Part shown: positions 12,629 to 21,501 of the stretch, piece by piece
Layout: the number at the start of each line of letters is the position of its first letter
Numbering within the stretch: position 1 is the stretch's first letter
Virus record (IMG/VR): IMGVR_UViG_3300019890_000003
Span: 1-64,000 of that record
Direction: 5' to 3' (one strand)
DNA: 64,000 bases
Source: a virus
Program-made: the position numbers and the translations under genes
The notes under the pieces: model-generated
Database searches by the model: none
What the model saw: only the letters and a program-made list of their open reading frames with translations
What the model was told of the DNA's origin: nothing

Positions 12629-13141
12629 CTAAGCACGATGGGTCCAACGATGGCGATGGTGCCAATGGTGCCAATGGTGCCAATGATGAACATGGCGGCC
12701 ACGGCCTCCGCGAAGACCATGCCAGATAGTGCTAGAGAATCCTCCATGTGAAGCACCCCAGCGCTTCATGAACCGAATCTGCGCAGGGACGGTACTTGGA
12801 TTCCTAGCGTTCAGTCCGGTCTGTCTAGTAAAGACCTCTCCCATTCCAGCGTCCCGATTACCTCTGGTATTATGACGGCCCCCATAATGCAATTGAAATG
12901 GCCCGAACGATGATCCATGATTGCCAATGTAGCAGTGGAAGCCTTCGGTATGGTAAACCTTTAGAAGTTGCCTAGTTTGTCTACCGCCCATCTCTTTAAT
13001 TATGGCTGTCCTGGAGACATCCATAATATGGCATCCAGCAAAAGCTTCCTGAAATGACAAACATGTCAAAACAACAGTTGCTAGAATTAATACCCATCGA
13101 CACCCAGTTGGTTTTCCAGAGAACATGCCCCATCCCCCCAA
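12629..13141 (-). CDS. Secreted lysozyme-superfamily-like protein with His/Trp tail
   Basis: Signal-like N-terminus; TEG...SFGPFQLHYGG; C-terminal HHW repeats. Confidence 0.5.
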   Translation of the reverse strand: MGGWGMFSGKPTGCRWVLILATVVLTCLSFQEAFAGCHIMDVSRTAIIKEMGGRQTRQLLKVYHTEGFHCYIGNHGSSFGPFQLHYGGRHNTRGNRDAGMGEVFTRQTGLNARNPSTVPAQIRFMKRWGASHGGFSSTIWHGLRGGRGRHVHHWHHWHHWHHRHRWTHRA

Positions 13142-13149
13142 ACTTGAAC

Positions 13150-13455
13150 CTATGGAAGAATATTCCCAAAGACAGCAGTATCGATGTAACTATGCGGATC
13201 AAACCTGACAAACAGAGGAGGATTAAAGAATGGTACTTGCGGAATATGATTGACTGGGTAGTGGCGCCTTGGCGGAGCAGGCGCATTGCAATCTGCTAAT
13301 TGAAAGAGCCCAGACTCAAGAGGAATCGGTCCAAGCGTAGAGTTATAAGAGTACCACCCGACCGGAATGTGGTTCGTATCTGACTTGCGGATGTTGATTT
13401 CTAGATACCATTGCCCTGGCACAAACGAGATAAACCTGGCATTTGGGCTCGTCAT
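13150..13455 (-). CDS. Protein with one C-terminal PFFNP...FDPHSYID repeat
   Basis: C-terminus parallels that of the upstream 1290-aa protein. Confidence 0.65.
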   Translation of the reverse strand: MTSPNARFISFVPGQWYLEINIRKSDTNHIPVGWYSYNSTLGPIPLESGLFQLADCNAPAPPRRHYPVNHIPQVPFFNPPLFVRFDPHSYIDTAVFGNILP

Positions 13456-16400
13456 GGCAATATGTGTCCGCCCCGAATCATTTGTTCGACATACATCATG
13501 GGGTTAAATTTGACGTTCTGCGTTGGATTGTAAAACGGAACGGCGTGAAACGCAGGTAGCGGCCTGGCAGAATAGTTTGTCCGCATAGTACTGCACTTTA
13601 AAACCGGTTCCCCGTTTAGCGAGATCTCGAACCTACCGATGTCGAAGGGCGGCTGCAGCCAATTCCCAAATACATCCTGCACAGCAATCCTAATAACCGC
13701 ATCTTTATCGGCGCAAAGAACAATGATGTTGGTTTCGGTGCGGGTGCATTCAGTGTTGTCTATATATGATAGCGGATCGAATCTTACGGTTATAAACGGA
13801 TTGAAGAATGGAACGCCGGTTACTGGAATAGGATAAAACGGAACGCGCTGCGGAACAATGAACCTGTCCCGATAGCGGCTATCGGCGAACGGCGCTCCGA
13901 GTAGAGATTGAACCTTCCCTTGGATTACCGTCGGTAGGAATGAGCTTGCCGGGTATTTTGTTGTGTCGCGATAGCTTTTATCGGCGAACGGAACGCCGAG
14001 CGCCCGCTGAACCGGCGGCTGAATAAGCCGTGGCAGGAACGGGTGCGGCGGATATTCAGAGGTATCCCGATATTTCCCGTCGCTGAACGGAACACCGAGT
14101 TGGGACTGAACCTTGCCCTGGATTACGCCAGGGAGGAACGCATTCTTTAGACCGGCGGCAGTATCGAAATAGCCCTTGACGTCGAACTTGACAACCGGGA
14201 ATGGATTGAAGAACGGCGTCTGAACCACCGCTGGCGCAGGGAATAGACCCTGGTTGAGCGGATAGACGTAGCTGTCGCGGTACGCTTTGGCATTGAACAG
14301 TACGACATTCTCAATGAGATTTAAGAACGTCGAGGCCGGCGTTTGAATTATGGATGGAAGAAACGCATTATCGCCGACGTTGGTCGGATCGCGAAATGCG
14401 AGTGCGTTAAACGGTGCGCCAAGCAGCGACTGGACCAACGGGAACGTTGTTGGTGGCGGATAGAGTTCGGTGTTCCTCGGATAGACGTATGTGTCCCGAT
14501 ACGTAGCCGAGTTAAACGGGGCGGCGTTCTCGACGAAATTCAGGAACGTCGATGTTGGCGTCTGAATGATATTCGGAAGGAATGCGTTGTCGCCGAAGTT
14601 AGCTAGATCACGGTATCCTAGCGCGTTAAACGGCGCCCCTAGATAAGCCTGAACCTTTCCTTGGATTGTAAACGGAAGGAATGCGTTGGAGTCGAAACCC
14701 CTATCACGGTAGCTCTGCGTGCTGAAGACTGCCGGAAGAGCTTGCCCAAAGAACGGCGAGAAGACAACAGCCTGATATAAATTATCGTTTACAGAGGTGG
14801 CGGACGAATCTCTGTAGCTTAAGGTATTGAATGGTATGGGCGGCGGTGGCGGTCCAATTAACGCGCCAACTGGCTCGCCAATCGACGGTAAGAATGTAGC
14901 GTAAAGACTTCTGGATTCGTTTGCAACAAACGTCGGCGATAGATACGGATTTGGGAGCGCGAGATCGCCTCCCGCGTCATTGTAGACAGTTTCTGAGCTT
15001 GGATCAGCCCGAACAGTATCCGAATTAACTACGCTGAGGTACGCAAGCCAAACAACCTGCCCCGCGACAAACAACGGATTCGCGGTCGTGTTGATTGTAT
15101 TCCAGGCGTCGTGGCTAGGGCCTCCTGTTGCCTGCGCTAGAAGACTGCCCGGCTTACCGGCTACGTCGGAATAAACAGCCAGGGATAGGGTTGAATTGCG
15201 GCCGGTTGAACAATTAACCGATATAGACTCGATTGTCCCAGAATTCGGCACGATATACGGGCCGTTCGCTACCGTAACCCCGACCAGGTTGTAAAGGGAA
15301 CCTATTGAGGTAGTAGTATACCCTAGCTCAAACCCACGCGGCAAAAACGCGTTGAAGGTCTGATAGCCTAGCGGGTCGCGATAGCTGACGTTATTGAACG
15401 GAACGGACGCAATCGGATTGAAGAACGGCGAGACAGTTGCTACCGGGAATAGACTCGGGTTCTCGCCACCGAGCGAATAATCCCGATAATTTAGGCCGTT
15501 GAACGAAACTCCTAATAAGGACTGTACCGGATTCTGAATTGTGGCCGGCAAGAACGCATTAGCGTCAAACAGGCTATCTCGGTAGTTCAGCCCATTGAAC
15601 GGCGCGCCAAGTTGAGATTGAATCTCTCCTTGAATAATGCTCGGCAGAAATGCGTTCGGGCTCGGATCAAAATTAGCCGGATCACGATAGTTCAGGCCGC
15701 TAAACGGAAGAGGCGGCAGCGGGCTGAAGAATGGCGAACCTACTGGAGCCGGGAAGAGGCTTGGATTCCTAGTCCAAGTCGAAGAATCTCGATAGCTAAG
15801 GCTGTTGAACGGAACTCCCAGCAACGATTGCGCTGGGTTCTGGATCGTCTGCGGCAGGAACGCATTGGGACTTGGATCGAAATTAGCTGGGTCGCGATAG
15901 CTCAGGCTGTTGAACGGCGCGCCGAGCAACGGCAGAATCGGGAATTGCAGTACCCGAGGAAGAAACGCGCTCCCATCAAAGAAACTGTCGCGGTAGTTAA
16001 GCCCGTTGAATGGTCCGCCGGTAAGGGACTGAATCTCTCCCTGAATGATGGACGGAAGAAATGCGTTGAATGTCTCATAACCAAGCGTGTCGAGATACGT
16101 CTTGGCGTCGAACTTGGAAACATTCTCAATGAAATTGAGGAATGTCTCGACCGGCGTTTGTATGACGCTCGGCAGAAACGCGTTTTCGCCGAAATTGCTC
16201 GGATCGGCGTATTTCTGCGAACTAAACTGTGCCGCCGTCGCCGGATTGAAAAACGGCGTCGCAGCCGGCGGTGTGCTATAAAGGCTTAGATTTACCGGCG
16301 GTATGAAATAGTCGCGATAGCCAGCGCCGCCAGTGTAGCCAGCGACGTTTAAATCGGCGCTTTCTACGGCCGTCCCGCCACCGGCTGGCACATACGTGAT

Positions 16401-17324
16401 AACGATAAGGCCTGCGCCGCCGACGCCACCGGTGCCTGCTGTCGATGATGACCAACCACCGCCACCGCCGCCACCGCCATAAAGGCCGCCAGCTCCGCCA
16501 TTACCAGCAGCGCTAGTGTCTGGGCTATTGCGCCCGCCACCGCCGCCACCGCCTCCACCAGAGCCTTTGGTGCCGTCTCCGACGTCTAGGCCATTGCCAC
16601 CCGCACCGCCGTTGCCAGCGACCGCTGCGCCATTGGTCGAGCCACCACCACCGCCACCAGATCCATTCGATCCTGTGCCGCCATTTACACCGGCACCGCC
16701 TCCTGAGCCGCCCGCCGTCGAGTCAACCGCCGCGCCACCTGGAGCCCCAGTGAACTGATCTACAAGCGGCGTGCCGCCTGTAGAGCCGCCGCCATTACCG
16801 CCGCCGCCGCCGCCGCCATTCTGGCTGAAGCCTGTACTCGCCCCTGAACTGCCGCCAGCCTTCCCAGCGCCGCCGGGGCCGCCAGCACCACCACCTGCCG
16901 ATGCGCCGTTAACAGTGTTAGCTTCCGCGCCGCCGTTACCGCCATTGACGGCCGTGCCGATCGAGCCGGATGCAAGGCCGCCTGGGCCGAATGTCGCCCC
17001 AGTAGCGCCGCCGCCCGCTTTCGCGCCGCAGCTCGAGCCGCCGAGAGTCGTGCCGTTAAACCAAGTGTCGCCGCCAGTGGTGCCGATAGCGCCGCCGACG
17101 CCGACCGTATAAGTGGCCGTGCCACCAGGCGTTAGGTTGACATTGGCGATCTTGGAATATGCGCCACCACCGCCGCCAGCACCTGTGGTATTGGTGCCTA
17201 CAACACCGCTAGCCCCGCCGCCTCCAGCACCGACCGTCTCAACGCTATTGTTTAAAATATTGAAATCGGTCGGAACATTGAATGTCGCGAGCGAGCCCGA
17301 CGTCAGATAAATGACTACCGCCAT
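13452..17324 (-). CDS. Giant virion-accessory-like protein: Gly-rich N-terminal domain plus about 21 F-x4-Y-x-D repeats with an inserted beta-sandwich
   Basis: 1290-aa ORF; repeats such as LGAPFNSLSYRD...NAFLP. Confidence 0.75.
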   Translation of the reverse strand: MAVVIYLTSGSLATFNVPTDFNILNNSVETVGAGGGGASGVVGTNTTGAGGGGGAYSKIANVNLTPGGTATYTVGVGGAIGTTGGDTWFNGTTLGGSSCGAKAGGGATGATFGPGGLASGSIGTAVNGGNGGAEANTVNGASAGGGAGGPGGAGKAGGSSGASTGFSQNGGGGGGGNGGGSTGGTPLVDQFTGAPGGAAVDSTAGGSGGGAGVNGGTGSNGSGGGGGGSTNGAAVAGNGGAGGNGLDVGDGTKGSGGGGGGGGGRNSPDTSAAGNGGAGGLYGGGGGGGGWSSSTAGTGGVGGAGLIVITYVPAGGGTAVESADLNVAGYTGGAGYRDYFIPPVNLSLYSTPPAATPFFNPATAAQFSSQKYADPSNFGENAFLPSVIQTPVETFLNFIENVSKFDAKTYLDTLGYETFNAFLPSIIQGEIQSLTGGPFNGLNYRDSFFDGSAFLPRVLQFPILPLLGAPFNSLSYRDPANFDPSPNAFLPQTIQNPAQSLLGVPFNSLSYRDSSTWTRNPSLFPAPVGSPFFSPLPPLPFSGLNYRDPANFDPSPNAFLPSIIQGEIQSQLGAPFNGLNYRDSLFDANAFLPATIQNPVQSLLGVSFNGLNYRDYSLGGENPSLFPVATVSPFFNPIASVPFNNVSYRDPLGYQTFNAFLPRGFELGYTTTSIGSLYNLVGVTVANGPYIVPNSGTIESISVNCSTGRNSTLSLAVYSDVAGKPGSLLAQATGGPSHDAWNTINTTANPLFVAGQVVWLAYLSVVNSDTVRADPSSETVYNDAGGDLALPNPYLSPTFVANESRSLYATFLPSIGEPVGALIGPPPPPIPFNTLSYRDSSATSVNDNLYQAVVFSPFFGQALPAVFSTQSYRDRGFDSNAFLPFTIQGKVQAYLGAPFNALGYRDLANFGDNAFLPNIIQTPTSTFLNFVENAAPFNSATYRDTYVYPRNTELYPPPTTFPLVQSLLGAPFNALAFRDPTNVGDNAFLPSIIQTPASTFLNLIENVVLFNAKAYRDSYVYPLNQGLFPAPAVVQTPFFNPFPVVKFDVKGYFDTAAGLKNAFLPGVIQGKVQSQLGVPFSDGKYRDTSEYPPHPFLPRLIQPPVQRALGVPFADKSYRDTTKYPASSFLPTVIQGKVQSLLGAPFADSRYRDRFIVPQRVPFYPIPVTGVPFFNPFITVRFDPLSYIDNTECTRTETNIIVLCADKDAVIRIAVQDVFGNWLQPPFDIGRFEISLNGEPVLKCSTMRTNYSARPLPAFHAVPFYNPTQNVKFNPMMYVEQMIRGGHILP

Positions 17325-17372
17325 GGCGACCCTAATGGTATGTCGCCTTAGGCGTCGTATGTTAGCCGCTGG

Positions 17373-17885
17373 CTATGGTAGCACCTTCAATATCCACGTA
17401 TTGATAAACGGCGTAATTCCAGGAGGAGGAGATAGGATCGCATTGTTGTAATCGGCACTGTCACGGTAACTCATACTGTTAAACGGCGCCCCGAGTTGCG
17501 ACTGCACTTTCCCCTGAATTAGCTTCGGCAGGAACGCGCTACCGTCAAAGAAGCTATCACGATACGTGAACGCATTGAATGGCGCCGGAATAAACGGATT
17601 AGAAAATGGCGCCAGCGTGGCGCCAAGGTATTGAATTACGCCGATCGCATCCGCGAGTTCCATCGCGGTTGTGGGTAGAGTCGGCAAAAGGCCGTTGTCG
17701 CTCCAGCTATTTCTATCCTGGTAGCTTAAACTCTGAAACGGAATTATGGGGGTTAGACCAAAAAACGGTTTCGCAGCAGCGGCCGGAGGATATAAGCTTT
17801 TGTTTAGCGGGAGATCCGCAGGATCGAGATAATTATGGCCATCAAACTTCGGCGGTCTGTTAAGAGATGTGCCGTATCGCGCCAT
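17373..17885 (-). CDS. Protein built of 4 F-x4-Y-x-D repeats
   Basis: FDGHNYLD, FQSLSYQD, FNAFTYRD, FNSMSYRD; shares YRDSFFDGSAFLP with the 1290-aa protein. Confidence 0.65.
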   Translation of the reverse strand: MARYGTSLNRPPKFDGHNYLDPADLPLNKSLYPPAAAAKPFFGLTPIIPFQSLSYQDRNSWSDNGLLPTLPTTAMELADAIGVIQYLGATLAPFSNPFIPAPFNAFTYRDSFFDGSAFLPKLIQGKVQSQLGAPFNSMSYRDSADYNNAILSPPPGITPFINTWILKVLP

Positions 17886-17909: not shown

Positions 17910-18725
17910 CTACAGCCATGCGTTTACGAATGGGTCCACAGCAGCCGGTGGAAGAAACGTCTGCAGATCGAACGCAGGTGATGCGAAGATGCCGTACGGA
18001 TCAGACTCCAGAAGCACAGCGTCTTGTTGGGTAAGCGCATGATCCCAAAAATAGATCGCCATCATCGCCGTGTCTGGCATGGCCTGGATCTCTAATGCGG
18101 CGGTTGATTGCGTACCGGCACCAGCAGAAACCCCCGTCGACGTCAGATATGATGCAGCATCCACCCAGACATTGCTGGTCAGTGGATTAATCTTAAGGGA
18201 GGCCAAAACACCATGAATTCCATTGCTTACTGCTGCGCCAGGACCGACAGTGGAGAACGCACCATAATAAAGGCAATGTAGGTTGCTGTTAGCTGAAGAC
18301 GTGAGCGGCCCGAAGCCGATGGGGCTAGCAGTGTTCGCGGCGTCACGCACGAACATCATGCCGTTGGCGCTGGCAGTCGAGACGCCTATCTGGCGATAAC
18401 GTATATAGAACGATATTTGTGGGGTCCACGCCACGATGCGCGGTGAGAGCGCGCCAGCCGCCGTGCATAAGCCATACCCGGTGTTAACCGCAGTACCAAT
18501 TACCGGCCCTTCCTGAGTGACAGCCGGTATCCCTGTGCAGGCGGCACCAGCATTTTGAACATCTACATAGAGAAAAGGCTTATTGATGCCGGTATAATCC
18601 ACCCAGGATATCCCAGGAAGATATGCACCAATCAGTCCATCCGCCAGCGGGTGAGTCCGGTTAATCGAAAGACTCGCCGGACGCGGAACCTGTTTCAGGC
18701 GTTGTCGCAACAGCTTGATAGGCAT
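17910..18725 (-). CDS. LamG/ConA-like lectin-fold virion accessory protein
   Basis: INRTHPLADGL start and IYFWDHALTQQD...DPYGIF end, typical of LamG-like phage proteins. Confidence 0.6.
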   Translation of the reverse strand: MPIKLLRQRLKQVPRPASLSINRTHPLADGLIGAYLPGISWVDYTGINKPFLYVDVQNAGAACTGIPAVTQEGPVIGTAVNTGYGLCTAAGALSPRIVAWTPQISFYIRYRQIGVSTASANGMMFVRDAANTASPIGFGPLTSSANSNLHCLYYGAFSTVGPGAAVSNGIHGVLASLKINPLTSNVWVDAASYLTSTGVSAGAGTQSTAALEIQAMPDTAMMAIYFWDHALTQQDAVLLESDPYGIFASPAFDLQTFLPPAAVDPFVNAWL

Positions 18726-19209: not shown

Positions 19210-19317
19210 TTTCTTTCTAGCCTGCTATTCCACGTTGACGAACGGGTTGTTTGACGGCGCGAAATCAGTGGTGAATGCCGCGCTTGCTCCCAACCAGCTA
19301 ATAGAGGCAGAAGTGCA

Positions 19318-20985: not shown

Positions 20986-21501
20986 TCAGATCGTCTCGTA
21001 AACGATATGTCCACCGATAAGGCCTGCTGTACTGCCGGTGAACCCTGATAGAGATGCGTCTCCATTCGGCCCGGTAACGCCGACAAGTTTGAAGTACTCA
21101 CCTGGATCCATTGCCGTCCAGCGCACGATGCCACCAAACGCATTGAAGGTAAGATTCAACCTGCCAAGCGTCACGACGTTAGACCTGGTTGGCTGCGTCG
21201 TTGCCGCAATATATCCTACAGCCGGCAACGCTAGTGCAGCGGCTGCTGGATCCATAGGACCATTCGATGACGTACCCGCAGCCAGAGCGGTAGGCGTGGC
21301 GCCAGCGGTCGAATCGCGCGACAAAACCATATACTGCGGCGCAGACGAAGTGGCTTGGCCGCCCATGTACACTTCGCTGATGTCGTTACGCTGAGTGGCA
21401 GAGCCGCCACCAAGAGCCATATATGTACCGGTCGTTAGAACCGCGTTGTCGGCTGTCGCGGCAGTCGTGAAGCTGTTGGTGGAAAACGAATACTTGGTCA
21501 T
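20986..21501 (-). CDS. Beta-sandwich structural protein
   Basis: 171 aa, Thr/Ala-rich; SD GGGG/AAGG upstream. Confidence 0.6.
   Translation of the reverse strand: MTKYSFSTNSFTTAATADNAVLTTGTYMALGGGSATQRNDISEVYMGGQATSSAPQYMVLSRDSTAGATPTALAAGTSSNGPMDPAAAALALPAVGYIAATTQPTRSNVVTLGRLNLTFNAFGGIVRWTAMDPGEYFKLVGVTGPNGDASLSGFTGSTAGLIGGHIVYETI

Follow-up and report, generated by a model that had tools for sequence, protein, structure and literature searches.

Three adjacent genes in the 64,000-nt stretch of viral DNA analysed here (the window) share a repeat of about 35 amino acids, and the question arises what the proteins built of it do for the phage: whether they form a part of the virion, dock other proteins to it, or act outside of it. 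The source is a contractile-tailed soil phage, which encodes a sheath protein of 463 aa and a tape-measure-like protein of 622 aa.

Organisation of the repeat locus

The long repeat protein P0001 is encoded between two smaller genes, P0002 and P0003. Three small neighbours of P0001 carry the repeat unit, either whole (P0002 and P0003) or as a C-terminal fragment (a 271-aa protein). The features of the locus are as follows:

19225..19317, minus strand: 30 in-frame codons after the TGA of a GH54-like gene, with the end NNPFVNVE-stop
17910..18725, minus strand: 271-aa protein, ending with FLPPAAVDPFVNAWL, a truncated-unit cap
17373-17885, minus strand: P0002, 170 aa; short N-terminal segment, four units and the C-terminal cap TPFINTWILKVLP
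13452-17324, minus strand: P0001, 1290 aa; long repeat protein
16380..17324, minus strand: P0001 residues 1-315; TNF-like and glycine-rich domain (38% Gly), read as a putative head
15339..16337, minus strand: P0001 residues ~330-662; repeat block 1, an F-less first unit and nine units
14838..15338, minus strand: P0001 residues ~663-829; inserted segment of ~170 aa
13758..14837, minus strand: P0001 residues 830-1189; repeat block 2, 10-11 units
13452..13757, minus strand: P0001 residues 1190-1290; half-domain D1 (...IRIAVQDVFGNWLQPPFD...), last B-type unit and the end GGHILP
13150-13455, minus strand: P0003, 101 aa; D2, one unit and the end GNILP

The stop codon of P0001 overlaps the start codon of P0003 (ATGA), and the P0001 C-terminus ending with GGHILP represents a short form, as compared to the long form of those relatives in which D1 and D2 are fused. 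The 30-codon stretch downstream of the GH54-like gene may be what is left of a capped gene, or else a read-through tail.

The repeat genes are located at 13-18 kb, on the late strand, upstream of the terminase gene. Genes of the baseplate hub, wedge and fibre-like proteins occupy the region of 52-64 kb, and those of the sheath (71112-72503), tube and tape measure the region of 66-72 kb; the repeat genes are not encoded in this tail/baseplate module, which lies ~35 kb away and already looks complete. Interleaved with the repeat gene set are genes of Sec-exported enzymes, namely of He_PIG/beta-helix proteins and of the GH54-like enzyme. The synteny of the locus is kept in L009, L010, L012, and L013. 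Promoter and terminator scans gave results at the chance level.

The repeat unit and its distribution

An earlier note, made from the sequence alone, had counted about 21 copies of F-x4-Y-x-D in the 1290-aa protein, four repeats in the upstream 170-aa gene and one in the downstream 101-aa gene. A regular-expression search for F-x4-[YF]-x-[DE] returned the same numbers (21 sites in P0001, four in P0002, and one in P0003), as compared to a mean of 0.76 and a maximum of six in 2000 shuffles of P0001 residues 331-1290. The strict motif places nine sites before the P0001 insert and 12 after it; since an F-less YRD (residues 336-338) and a unit split by the insert come in addition, the division into ten and eleven copies proposed previously is reasonable. 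FNPMMYVE, the degenerate last copy, occurs in P0001 as described, and the two spacer subtypes recognised at that time are genuine; our analysis added a third one, IIQTP-xx-TFLNFIEN, of 38 aa. The order of subtypes in repeat block 1 is B C A A A B A A B, followed by the start of a unit that is interrupted by the insert, and repeat block 2 ends with A A A B, likewise in all relatives.

The unit, which can be written as ...AFLP-xx-IQ-xx-VQS-x-LG-x-PF-x4-YRD, comprises 32-38 aa, mostly 32 or 35 aa, and the composition is rich in proline and aromatic residues (P 11.5%, F 8.7%). In the 32-aa class, 18 of the 32 positions are conserved in at least 64%, with invariant Gly and Pro among them; the invariant residues are P10, Q14, G22, F25, and Y30, the Arg-Asp pair is near-invariant, and two G-x-x-F-x-P-x-x-(I/Y) half-units can be distinguished ~16-17 aa apart. 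Such dense conservation suggests that the 32-aa unit folds as a structural repeat instead of combining a short linear motif with a free spacer.

The DNA identity among repeat copies is only 60-85%, and the Arg of YRD uses all four CGN codons, which indicates an old array that has been conserved as protein and not a recent DNA duplication. A recent tandem duplication of DNA, as well as a low-complexity artefact, is ruled out by this copy identity together with the saturation of synonymous sites. With synonymous sites saturated and dN/dS of at most 0.2, the proteins are real and constrained. Individual units keep their identity between phages, and those of block 2 align one to one with the units of relatives; the number of units ranges from 19 to 26 among relatives.

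The repeat family, which the earlier note had not recognised, remained unrecognised after profile comparisons. Searches of Pfam-A, PHROGs v4, and NCBIfam with the unit assigned no family to P0001 and P0003 and only a chance match to P0002 (E up to 0.1); the relatives P0005-P0011 likewise gave no family for the unit. Neither the repeat body nor a profile of the C-terminal domain gave a significant match among PDB sequences. A unit profile search of 1.84 billion protein representatives retrieved nine real proteins, all from a few soil-phage contigs. No match was obtained by blastn/tblastn of a collection of 50,697 phages with the locus, P0001, and the 171-aa and 158-aa neighbours, no relatives of P0002 were found among viral contigs, and the search of 185,579 species genomes with the family alignment revealed no prophage copies. 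Look-alikes sought in the ESM Atlas included no usable match to the repeat half of P0001, and only unnamed viral clusters were returned for the 171-aa neighbour; a literature search for the motif strings returned nothing relevant. The possibility that the repeats are of the RHS/YD, RTX or PEP-CTERM type was rejected on account of the lack of family matches and of caps that are too short for a membrane anchor. As judged from these sequence comparisons, the repeat family is new and previously undescribed.

The AlphaFold2 prediction for the repeat alignment (46 rows, ~30 deep) contained no self-contained solenoid or propeller and only short helices at low confidence. It agrees with the extended chain envisaged in the earlier note, but the agreement is weak, as the alignments were shallow, and the monomer models (pLDDT of 26.9 and 38.9) had no confident fold and a confidence too low to speak against a solenoid or propeller. 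Such low values for monomers are consistent with an intertwined or partner-dependent fibre, and they may only reflect the shallow alignments.

Head, C-terminal domain and capped neighbours

The comparison of P0001 residues 1-315 with PDB sequences by phmmer indicated similarity to the tail fibre protein gp24 of cyanophage Pam3 (7yfw, 7ypx; E 4e-4). The aligned pairs, P0001 residues 5-159 and 205-312 versus gp24 chain residues 83-223 and 162-275, cover both ends of the domain (SG..f.vP, TPG...YTVG, and GGVG..GlivitY). The match is compositionally biased (domain score of 15 bits, bias of 53), and Pfam gave no match for the head. In Pam3, the fibre is trimeric, and the TNF-like/glycine-rich domain of gp24 forms its distal tip, which recognises the receptor (PMC9608196). 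The opening strand, the TPG...YTVG motif, the GGGGxGG-type stretches, and the closing GGVG..G(L/I)I(V/I) strand are common to gp24 and the P0001 head. However, in gp24, which has 280 aa in all, this domain is C-terminal and stands behind a short N-terminal helical docking bundle, whereas in P0001 it lies at the very N-terminus, with ~975 aa of repeats and other domains behind it. A gp25-like chaperone was not recognised here. The Pam3-like domain occurs in the genome once, and its resemblance to the receptor-binding tip of the Pam3 fibre makes P0001 residues 1-315 a predicted head. In the relatives P0005-P0007, the head is replaced by a beta-sandwich of ~185 aa exactly at the ...ADLN(V/I)... 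junction. The same beta-sandwich occurs also in a free form of 189-193 aa that ends with a cap (34% identity, E 1e-16), and further family members have a PKD-like domain or other heads ahead of the units. In every member of the family, the globular domain comes first and the unit or units are at the C-terminus.

The insert of ~170 aa, for which the earlier note had suggested a beta-sandwich-like fold, interrupts a unit spacer, with NAFLP on one side and PF-x4-YRD on the other, and is absent from P0005-P0007. It had no match in Pfam or PDB, and its AlphaFold2 pLDDT was below 40. Its origin as a copy of the 271-aa capped protein was considered and rejected, as the two are not similar.

The most conserved part of the family is D1-D2, with 82% column identity among three phages. 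In the phage studied and in one relative, this C-terminal domain is split, its second half (D2) being the product of the 101-aa gene; P0003 is 57% identical to residues 869-959 of P0007 (E 1e-33). The ATGA junction and the MTSPNAR start of P0003 recur in L014, with synonymous differences, and dN/dS of P0003 is 0.1-0.2, on the basis of which we rejected the possibility that P0003 is a meaningless leftover.

The cap at the ends of neighbouring proteins is a truncated unit of the form PF[VI]NxW. For instance, P0009 (153 aa), an orthologue of P0002, ends with PNPFVNVWMLQIR, and the comparison of P0007 residues 502-536 with the ends of P0009 and P0010 identifies the cap as the truncated unit itself. 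In this genome, PF[VIFLM]N is confined to the described gene set, the sole other match lying in a spurious frame on the plus strand. The 271-aa protein belongs to no known family and is an orphan in a set of 5.8 billion proteins. Neither P0001-P0003 nor the 271-aa protein has a signal peptide, in contrast to the surrounding glycanases, which indicates that the former are in the cytoplasm during virion assembly. By their sequences, the capped neighbours fit some kind of module recruitment or co-assembly.

Possible roles of the repeat proteins

The explanation that we tentatively prefer, although we hold it at somewhat less than even confidence, is that P0001 forms the principal chain of an accessory modular host-binding fibre or adhesin with a repeat stalk, a swappable N-terminal head, and a C-terminal attachment end. 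P0001 would be expressed late and assembled in the cytoplasm. Its N-terminal TNF-like/glycine-rich domain would be a distal, exchangeable binding head, and its ~21 family-specific units of 32-38 aa would form an elongated stalk, the folding of which may need self-association (probably oligomerisation) or partners. The conserved C-terminal D1 (or D1/D2) with the last unit would serve as the attachment end. P0002, P0003 (D2 and a unit), and the 271-aa protein (a domain and a cap) may join the same assembly via the unit or PF[VI]NxW. The virion association, polarity, oligomeric state, and binding partners of P0001 are those that we infer for it from these features. The presence of a Pam3-gp24-like head that is swapped in relatives argues for a fibre or adhesin rather than for a cement or scaffold protein, and the C-terminus is the best-conserved part, as expected where a conserved partner is met. 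A variable number of units and a tolerated insert fit fibre shafts, which commonly vary in this way.

Certain features speak against a fibre. The locus is far from the seemingly complete baseplate/tail-fibre module, and the interleaving of the repeat genes with those of Sec-exported enzymes counts against it, as such enzymes cannot be virion parts. Additionally, the Pro- and aromatic-rich composition and the low-confidence short helices are atypical of known fibre shafts, and the polarity of most known phage fibres is the reverse of one with a distal N-terminus and a C-terminal anchor. The long-tail-fibre proteins gp34, gp36, and gp37 of phage T4 are encoded by adjacent genes sharing a repeat motif, and their products join into one composite fibre. 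The repeat proteins described here may be compared to them with respect to a repeat common to adjacent genes and varying in number between relatives; they differ in the lack of a match to Pfam or PHROG fibre families, in the position of the locus, which is not beside baseplate genes, in the Pro/aromatic-rich composition, and in the N-terminal location of the variable head. In triple beta-spiral shafts, for example those of the adenovirus fibre and of reovirus sigma1, the repeats are ~15-20 aa long, and the chains fold only when intertwined as trimers. A possible analogy lies in the short pseudo-repeats of these shafts, in which hydrophobic residues are conserved and turns contain Pro or Gly, but the unit described here is 32-38 aa long and has no detectable homology to them.

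Three other roles have to be weighed against the fibre. In line with the main idea of the earlier note, each unit could be a docking peptide for one subunit of a sheath strand or capsid lattice, so that a chain running along the structure would display the head, the insert, and D1, and single-unit or capped proteins would dock as decorations. The occurrence of the unit or cap at the end of otherwise unrelated domains fits such a portable anchor, as does the absence of a self-contained fold in the AlphaFold2 predictions. By the tail length rule (1.5 A per residue, about 40 A per disc), the 622-aa tape measure corresponds to roughly 23 discs, which is close to 21-22 units, a coincidence that is numerology only; the contigs of relatives contain no tail genes for comparison. 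However, the range of 19-26 units among close relatives and the 170-aa domain inserted in a spacer argue against a strict ruler, swappable heads of the receptor-binding type would be unexpected on a cement or ruler protein, nearly the whole 32-aa unit is conserved, its 'spacer' included, nothing ties the units to capsid or sheath subunits, and no partner was identified. We therefore regard lattice docking as unlikely. Still less probable, in our opinion, is a platform resembling a cellulosome, in which the units of P0001 would be receptor sites and the PF[VI]NxW caps the matching 'dockerins', so that several binding or enzymatic modules (P0002, the 271-aa protein, and the free beta-sandwich of relatives) would be carried on one chain. 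Its attraction is that capped proteins are always encoded beside the long protein, that PF[VIFLM]N is restricted to the gene set (the spurious plus-strand frame aside), that a cap remnant may follow the GH54-like gene, and that the beta-sandwich is either fused to repeats or free with a cap, which by 'Rosetta-stone' logic points to an interaction. Yet there are just two to three capped proteins for ~21 units, the GH54-like enzyme has a Sec signal and would be apart from the cytoplasmic P0001, and the cap is a truncated unit and not a distinct partner module, which suggests homotypic co-assembly instead of a receptor-ligand pair. An array of docking sites that recruits tagged modules to one chain is what the locus may share with scaffoldins and dockerins, and ~35-aa disordered units binding a periodic partner are a possible analogy with the fibronectin-binding repeats of staphylococcal FnBPA; it is related in sequence to neither of them, its 'tag' is a truncated unit, and nearly all unit positions are conserved.

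Comparably improbable is a role outside of the virion, in which lysis would set free P0001 and its partners as multivalent binders of host polysaccharides (EPS, capsule, or O-antigen), with the aromatic residues, Arg, and Asp of the units contacting successive sugar repeats alongside the exported glycanases. The interleaving of the genes with those of the exported He_PIG/beta-helix proteins and the GH54-like enzyme, and the separation of the locus from tail genes, are in line with this role, and so are the Phe and Tyr that are invariant in each unit and its near-invariant Arg-Asp, these four being residues typical of sugar-binding sites. However, having no signal peptide, the proteins could not act before lysis; assembly by protein-protein contacts is suggested by the strongly conserved C-terminal domain as well as by the caps, and the only solved homologue of the head is a virion fibre tip.

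Apart from the role of P0001 itself, the unit of 32-38 aa and its PF[VI]NxW truncation could constitute a portable assembly peptide, an idea that we put forward as speculative and rather doubtful. Various heads (glycine-rich/TNF-like, beta-sandwich, PKD-like, and D2) would attach to one common stalk or periodic virion lattice by ending in the unit or units, which would give a combinatorial, 'bottle-brush' display of heads, and the domain split over two genes (D1 on P0001 and D2 on P0003) would reassemble in trans.

If P0001 is indeed a fibre protein, it would represent a new type of shaft repeat in uncultured soil myoviruses, the host-recognition apparatus of which has so far been obscure, and its polarity would be unusual, with an exchangeable N-terminal receptor-binding head and a conserved C-terminal anchor. 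Were it a lattice-bound scaffold instead, it would belong to a new class among the accessory proteins of tails or capsids. The shared unit and cap, together with the conserved C-terminal split, make this locus a simple system for studying the assembly of multi-protein adhesins and the exchange of their modules, and a short portable assembly peptide could serve the display of cargo on phage particles.

The repeat genes and their surroundings

The source record (77,681 bp, rated complete by CheckV; the window is its first 64 kb) represents a contractile-tail phage, with genes for the sheath, tube, two tape-measure-like proteins, baseplate hub, wedge and fibre-like proteins at ~52-72 kb, and the head genes, portal and terminase at 0.5-8 kb. 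Its portal shares ~47% identity with those of Yersinia, Klebsiella and Pantoea myoviruses. The minus strand holds every gene between 26.4 and 0.5 kb, and the repeat genes belong there to a gene set upstream of the terminase.

Gene set containing the repeat genes, in order (minus strand)
Three Sec-signal proteins: He_PIG; He_PIG with beta-helix; one more
Cys-rich 121-aa protein
20986-21501, 171-aa protein; then a 196-aa protein
GH54-like arabinofuranosidase with signal peptide (PF09206, 2e-45)
158-aa protein; then 17910-18725, 271-aa protein
17373-17885, P0002, 170-aa repeat protein
13452-17324, P0001, 1290-aa repeat protein
13150-13455, P0003, 101-aa repeat protein
12629-13141, 170-aa protein with signal peptide or lipobox

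No signal peptide is present in P0001-P0003 or in the 271-, 158-, 196- and 171-aa proteins. The 171-aa protein is kept in all related loci (e.g., L010:7458-7973 and L013:895-1410) and falls into a widespread unnamed family of tailed-phage proteins (~30 clusters in the ESM Atlas). The gene at 12629-13141, directly downstream of the repeat genes, has homologues in two related loci (L009:1269-1754 and L012:1273-1719); its product has a GSSFGPFQLHYGG motif and a C-terminal tail rich in His, Trp and Arg, matches no family, and may function in lysis or act on the envelope. A 6-bp hairpin (GGCGAC, 11-nt loop, GTCGCC; 17325-17347, minus) immediately adjoins P0001's ATG and overlaps the sole AAGG upstream of it, and could influence translation initiation.

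Two further observations lie past the window end. At G000 65940-69937 (L016:2941-6938, minus), two adjoining tape-measure-like paralogues (622 and 709 aa) are encoded, both matching phrog_7694, the second having an additional tail-lysozyme/hub-like C-terminal region. An HNH/endonuclease VII-like gene (G000 74315-74893, L016:11316-11894, minus) is located between head and tail genes, within the structural run.

The repeat unit and its relatives

P0001 contains the motif F-x4-[YF]-x-[DE] 21 times, P0002 four times and P0003 once, at a spacing of 32-38 residues, against an average of 0.76 such sites (maximum 6) in the shuffled P0001 body. Alignment of 52 units from three phages gave the consensus AFLP-xx-IQ-xx-V-xxx-LGAPFN-xxx-YRD, with three spacer subtypes: A, IQG-x-VQS-x-LG; B, N-x-L(F/Y)P…PFFNP; and C, IIQTP..TFLNFIEN. 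Among 90 units counted in nine proteins the commonest lengths are 32 and 35 aa; within the 32-aa class, conservation reaches 64% or more at 18 of the 32 positions, with P10, Q14, G22, F25 and Y30 invariant. The presence of G-x-x-F-x-P-x-x-(I/Y) twice per 32-aa unit, ~16-17 residues apart, hints at an older half-unit. Copies share merely 60-85% identity as DNA. Comparison with orthologues shows saturation at synonymous sites (pS 0.64-0.76) and a pN of 0.24-0.33, which puts dN/dS at 0.2 or below. The array is thus old and constrained at the protein level.

The repeat has no match in Pfam, PHROGs, NCBIfam or PDB sequences, and our literature search found no paper containing the motif strings. A unit profile (E ≤1e-3) had 11 matches among 1.84 billion representative proteins, two of which (P0013 and P0014) were rejected as unrelated repeats. 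A word-indexed search of 5.8 billion proteins revealed three long relatives: P0005 (1156 aa), P0006 (1160 aa) and P0007 (968 aa). Contig scans yielded seven loci, L009-L015 (L009 and L015 are one contig, counted twice), six from metagenome records, presumably of soil judging by record names, and one from IMG/VR; 185,579 species genomes and 50,697 phage records contributed none.

The number of units in relatives ranges from 19 to 26. P0001 has an extra segment of ~170 aa, a candidate domain without an assigned fold, which interrupts the spacer of one unit. The C-terminal units match one to one across phages, and their order just before the C-terminal domain is A-A-A-B or A-A-B in every relative. 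No self-contained solenoid or propeller appeared in AlphaFold2 models, whose confidence was too low to argue against such a fold (mean pLDDT 26.9 for the 961-aa body with 8 sequences; 38.9 for a five-unit segment with a 46-row repeat alignment ~30 rows deep). The latter model placed short low-confidence helices over P-xx-IQ-xx-VQS-x-L.

Head, C-terminal domain and cap

Residues 1-315 of P0001 (38% Gly) align with the TNF-like, glycine-rich domain in gp24, the tail fibre of Pam3 (E 4e-4), and the alignment takes in non-glycine motifs at either end of the domain. In Pam3 this domain forms the tip by which a trimeric fibre recognises its receptor (PMC9608196). In P0005-P0007, a beta-sandwich-like domain of ~185 aa occupies the place of this head, at the same ADLN(V/I) junction; L010 and L013 also encode it, two genes upstream, as a free-standing protein of 189-193 aa (34% identity, E 1e-16).

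The C-terminal domain is the best-conserved part of the family (82% column identity across three phages). Its long form comprises halves D1 and D2 and the last unit (P0006, P0007, L012); its short form, D1 and the last unit (P0001, P0005, L014). In the window, D2 and a last unit are encoded apart, by P0003 (57% identity to P0007 residues 869-959, E 1e-33), the ATG of which overlaps the P0001 stop. L014 has an identical ATGA junction and MTSPNAR start and differs at many synonymous sites, from which we conclude that the split is conserved and reject its interpretation as debris. On this 1.7-kb metagenome contig the P0001 orthologue shifts reading frame near base 1200 (L014:1190-1205), either by an assembly error or as a broken gene; the short-form C-terminus and the start of the P0003-like gene are intact despite it.

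Several small proteins end in a cap, PF[VI]NxW, which corresponds to the leading two-thirds of a unit and finishes with Trp and hydrophobic residues, as comparison with hybrid units (e.g., P0007 residues 502-536) indicates. P0002 ends TPFINTWILKVLP, the 271-aa protein DPFVNAWL, the free beta-sandwich proteins of relatives NPFV(S/N)IWIS(R/Q), and small repeat proteins (130 aa in L010, 129 aa in L013, P0009, P0010) NPF(V/M)N(L/V)W.(I/L)Q(I/Y)R. Because caps are truncated units, every family member consists of globular domain(s) followed by C-terminal unit(s) or a truncated unit. Among frames of at least 50 aa in this genome, PF[VIFLM]N is confined to the repeat gene set, save one spurious plus-strand match. 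The GH54-like gene is followed past its TGA by 30 open in-frame codons ending NNPFVNVE-stop (19225-19317, minus); this stretch is either a read-through tail or what is left of a capped gene that the GH54 insertion displaced.

A candidate modular adhesin or fibre

We tentatively consider P0001 a candidate elongated modular adhesin or fibre, with a distal N-terminal head and a C-terminal attachment end, with which the small proteins would co-assemble via the shared unit or cap. This reading is favoured by a head that is of receptor-binding type and swapped at a fixed junction, by variation in repeat number and tolerance of insertions, by conservation along the whole unit, Gly and Pro being invariant, by strong conservation of the far end, by the presence of the unit in several adjoining genes, and by the absence of export signals and the late-strand position of the genes. 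It is weakened by the distance of the locus from the tail module, by the exported enzymes interleaved with the repeat genes, and by a polarity and composition unusual for a fibre.

The cap also lends some support to both proposals of the earlier note. A scaffold docking on a lattice of capsid or sheath subunits appears unlikely, and its action as a ruler is disfavoured by the variable unit count, insertions and head swaps. We regard as quite improbable a cellulosome-like platform recruiting modules and, to the same degree, a non-virion multivalent glycan binder acting with glycanases.

Modular phage adhesins and fibres, the kind in which we place P0001, are already known; what is new is the repeat family, together with the position of the head at the N-terminus, the truncated unit that caps partner proteins, and a C-terminal domain whose division between two genes is conserved.
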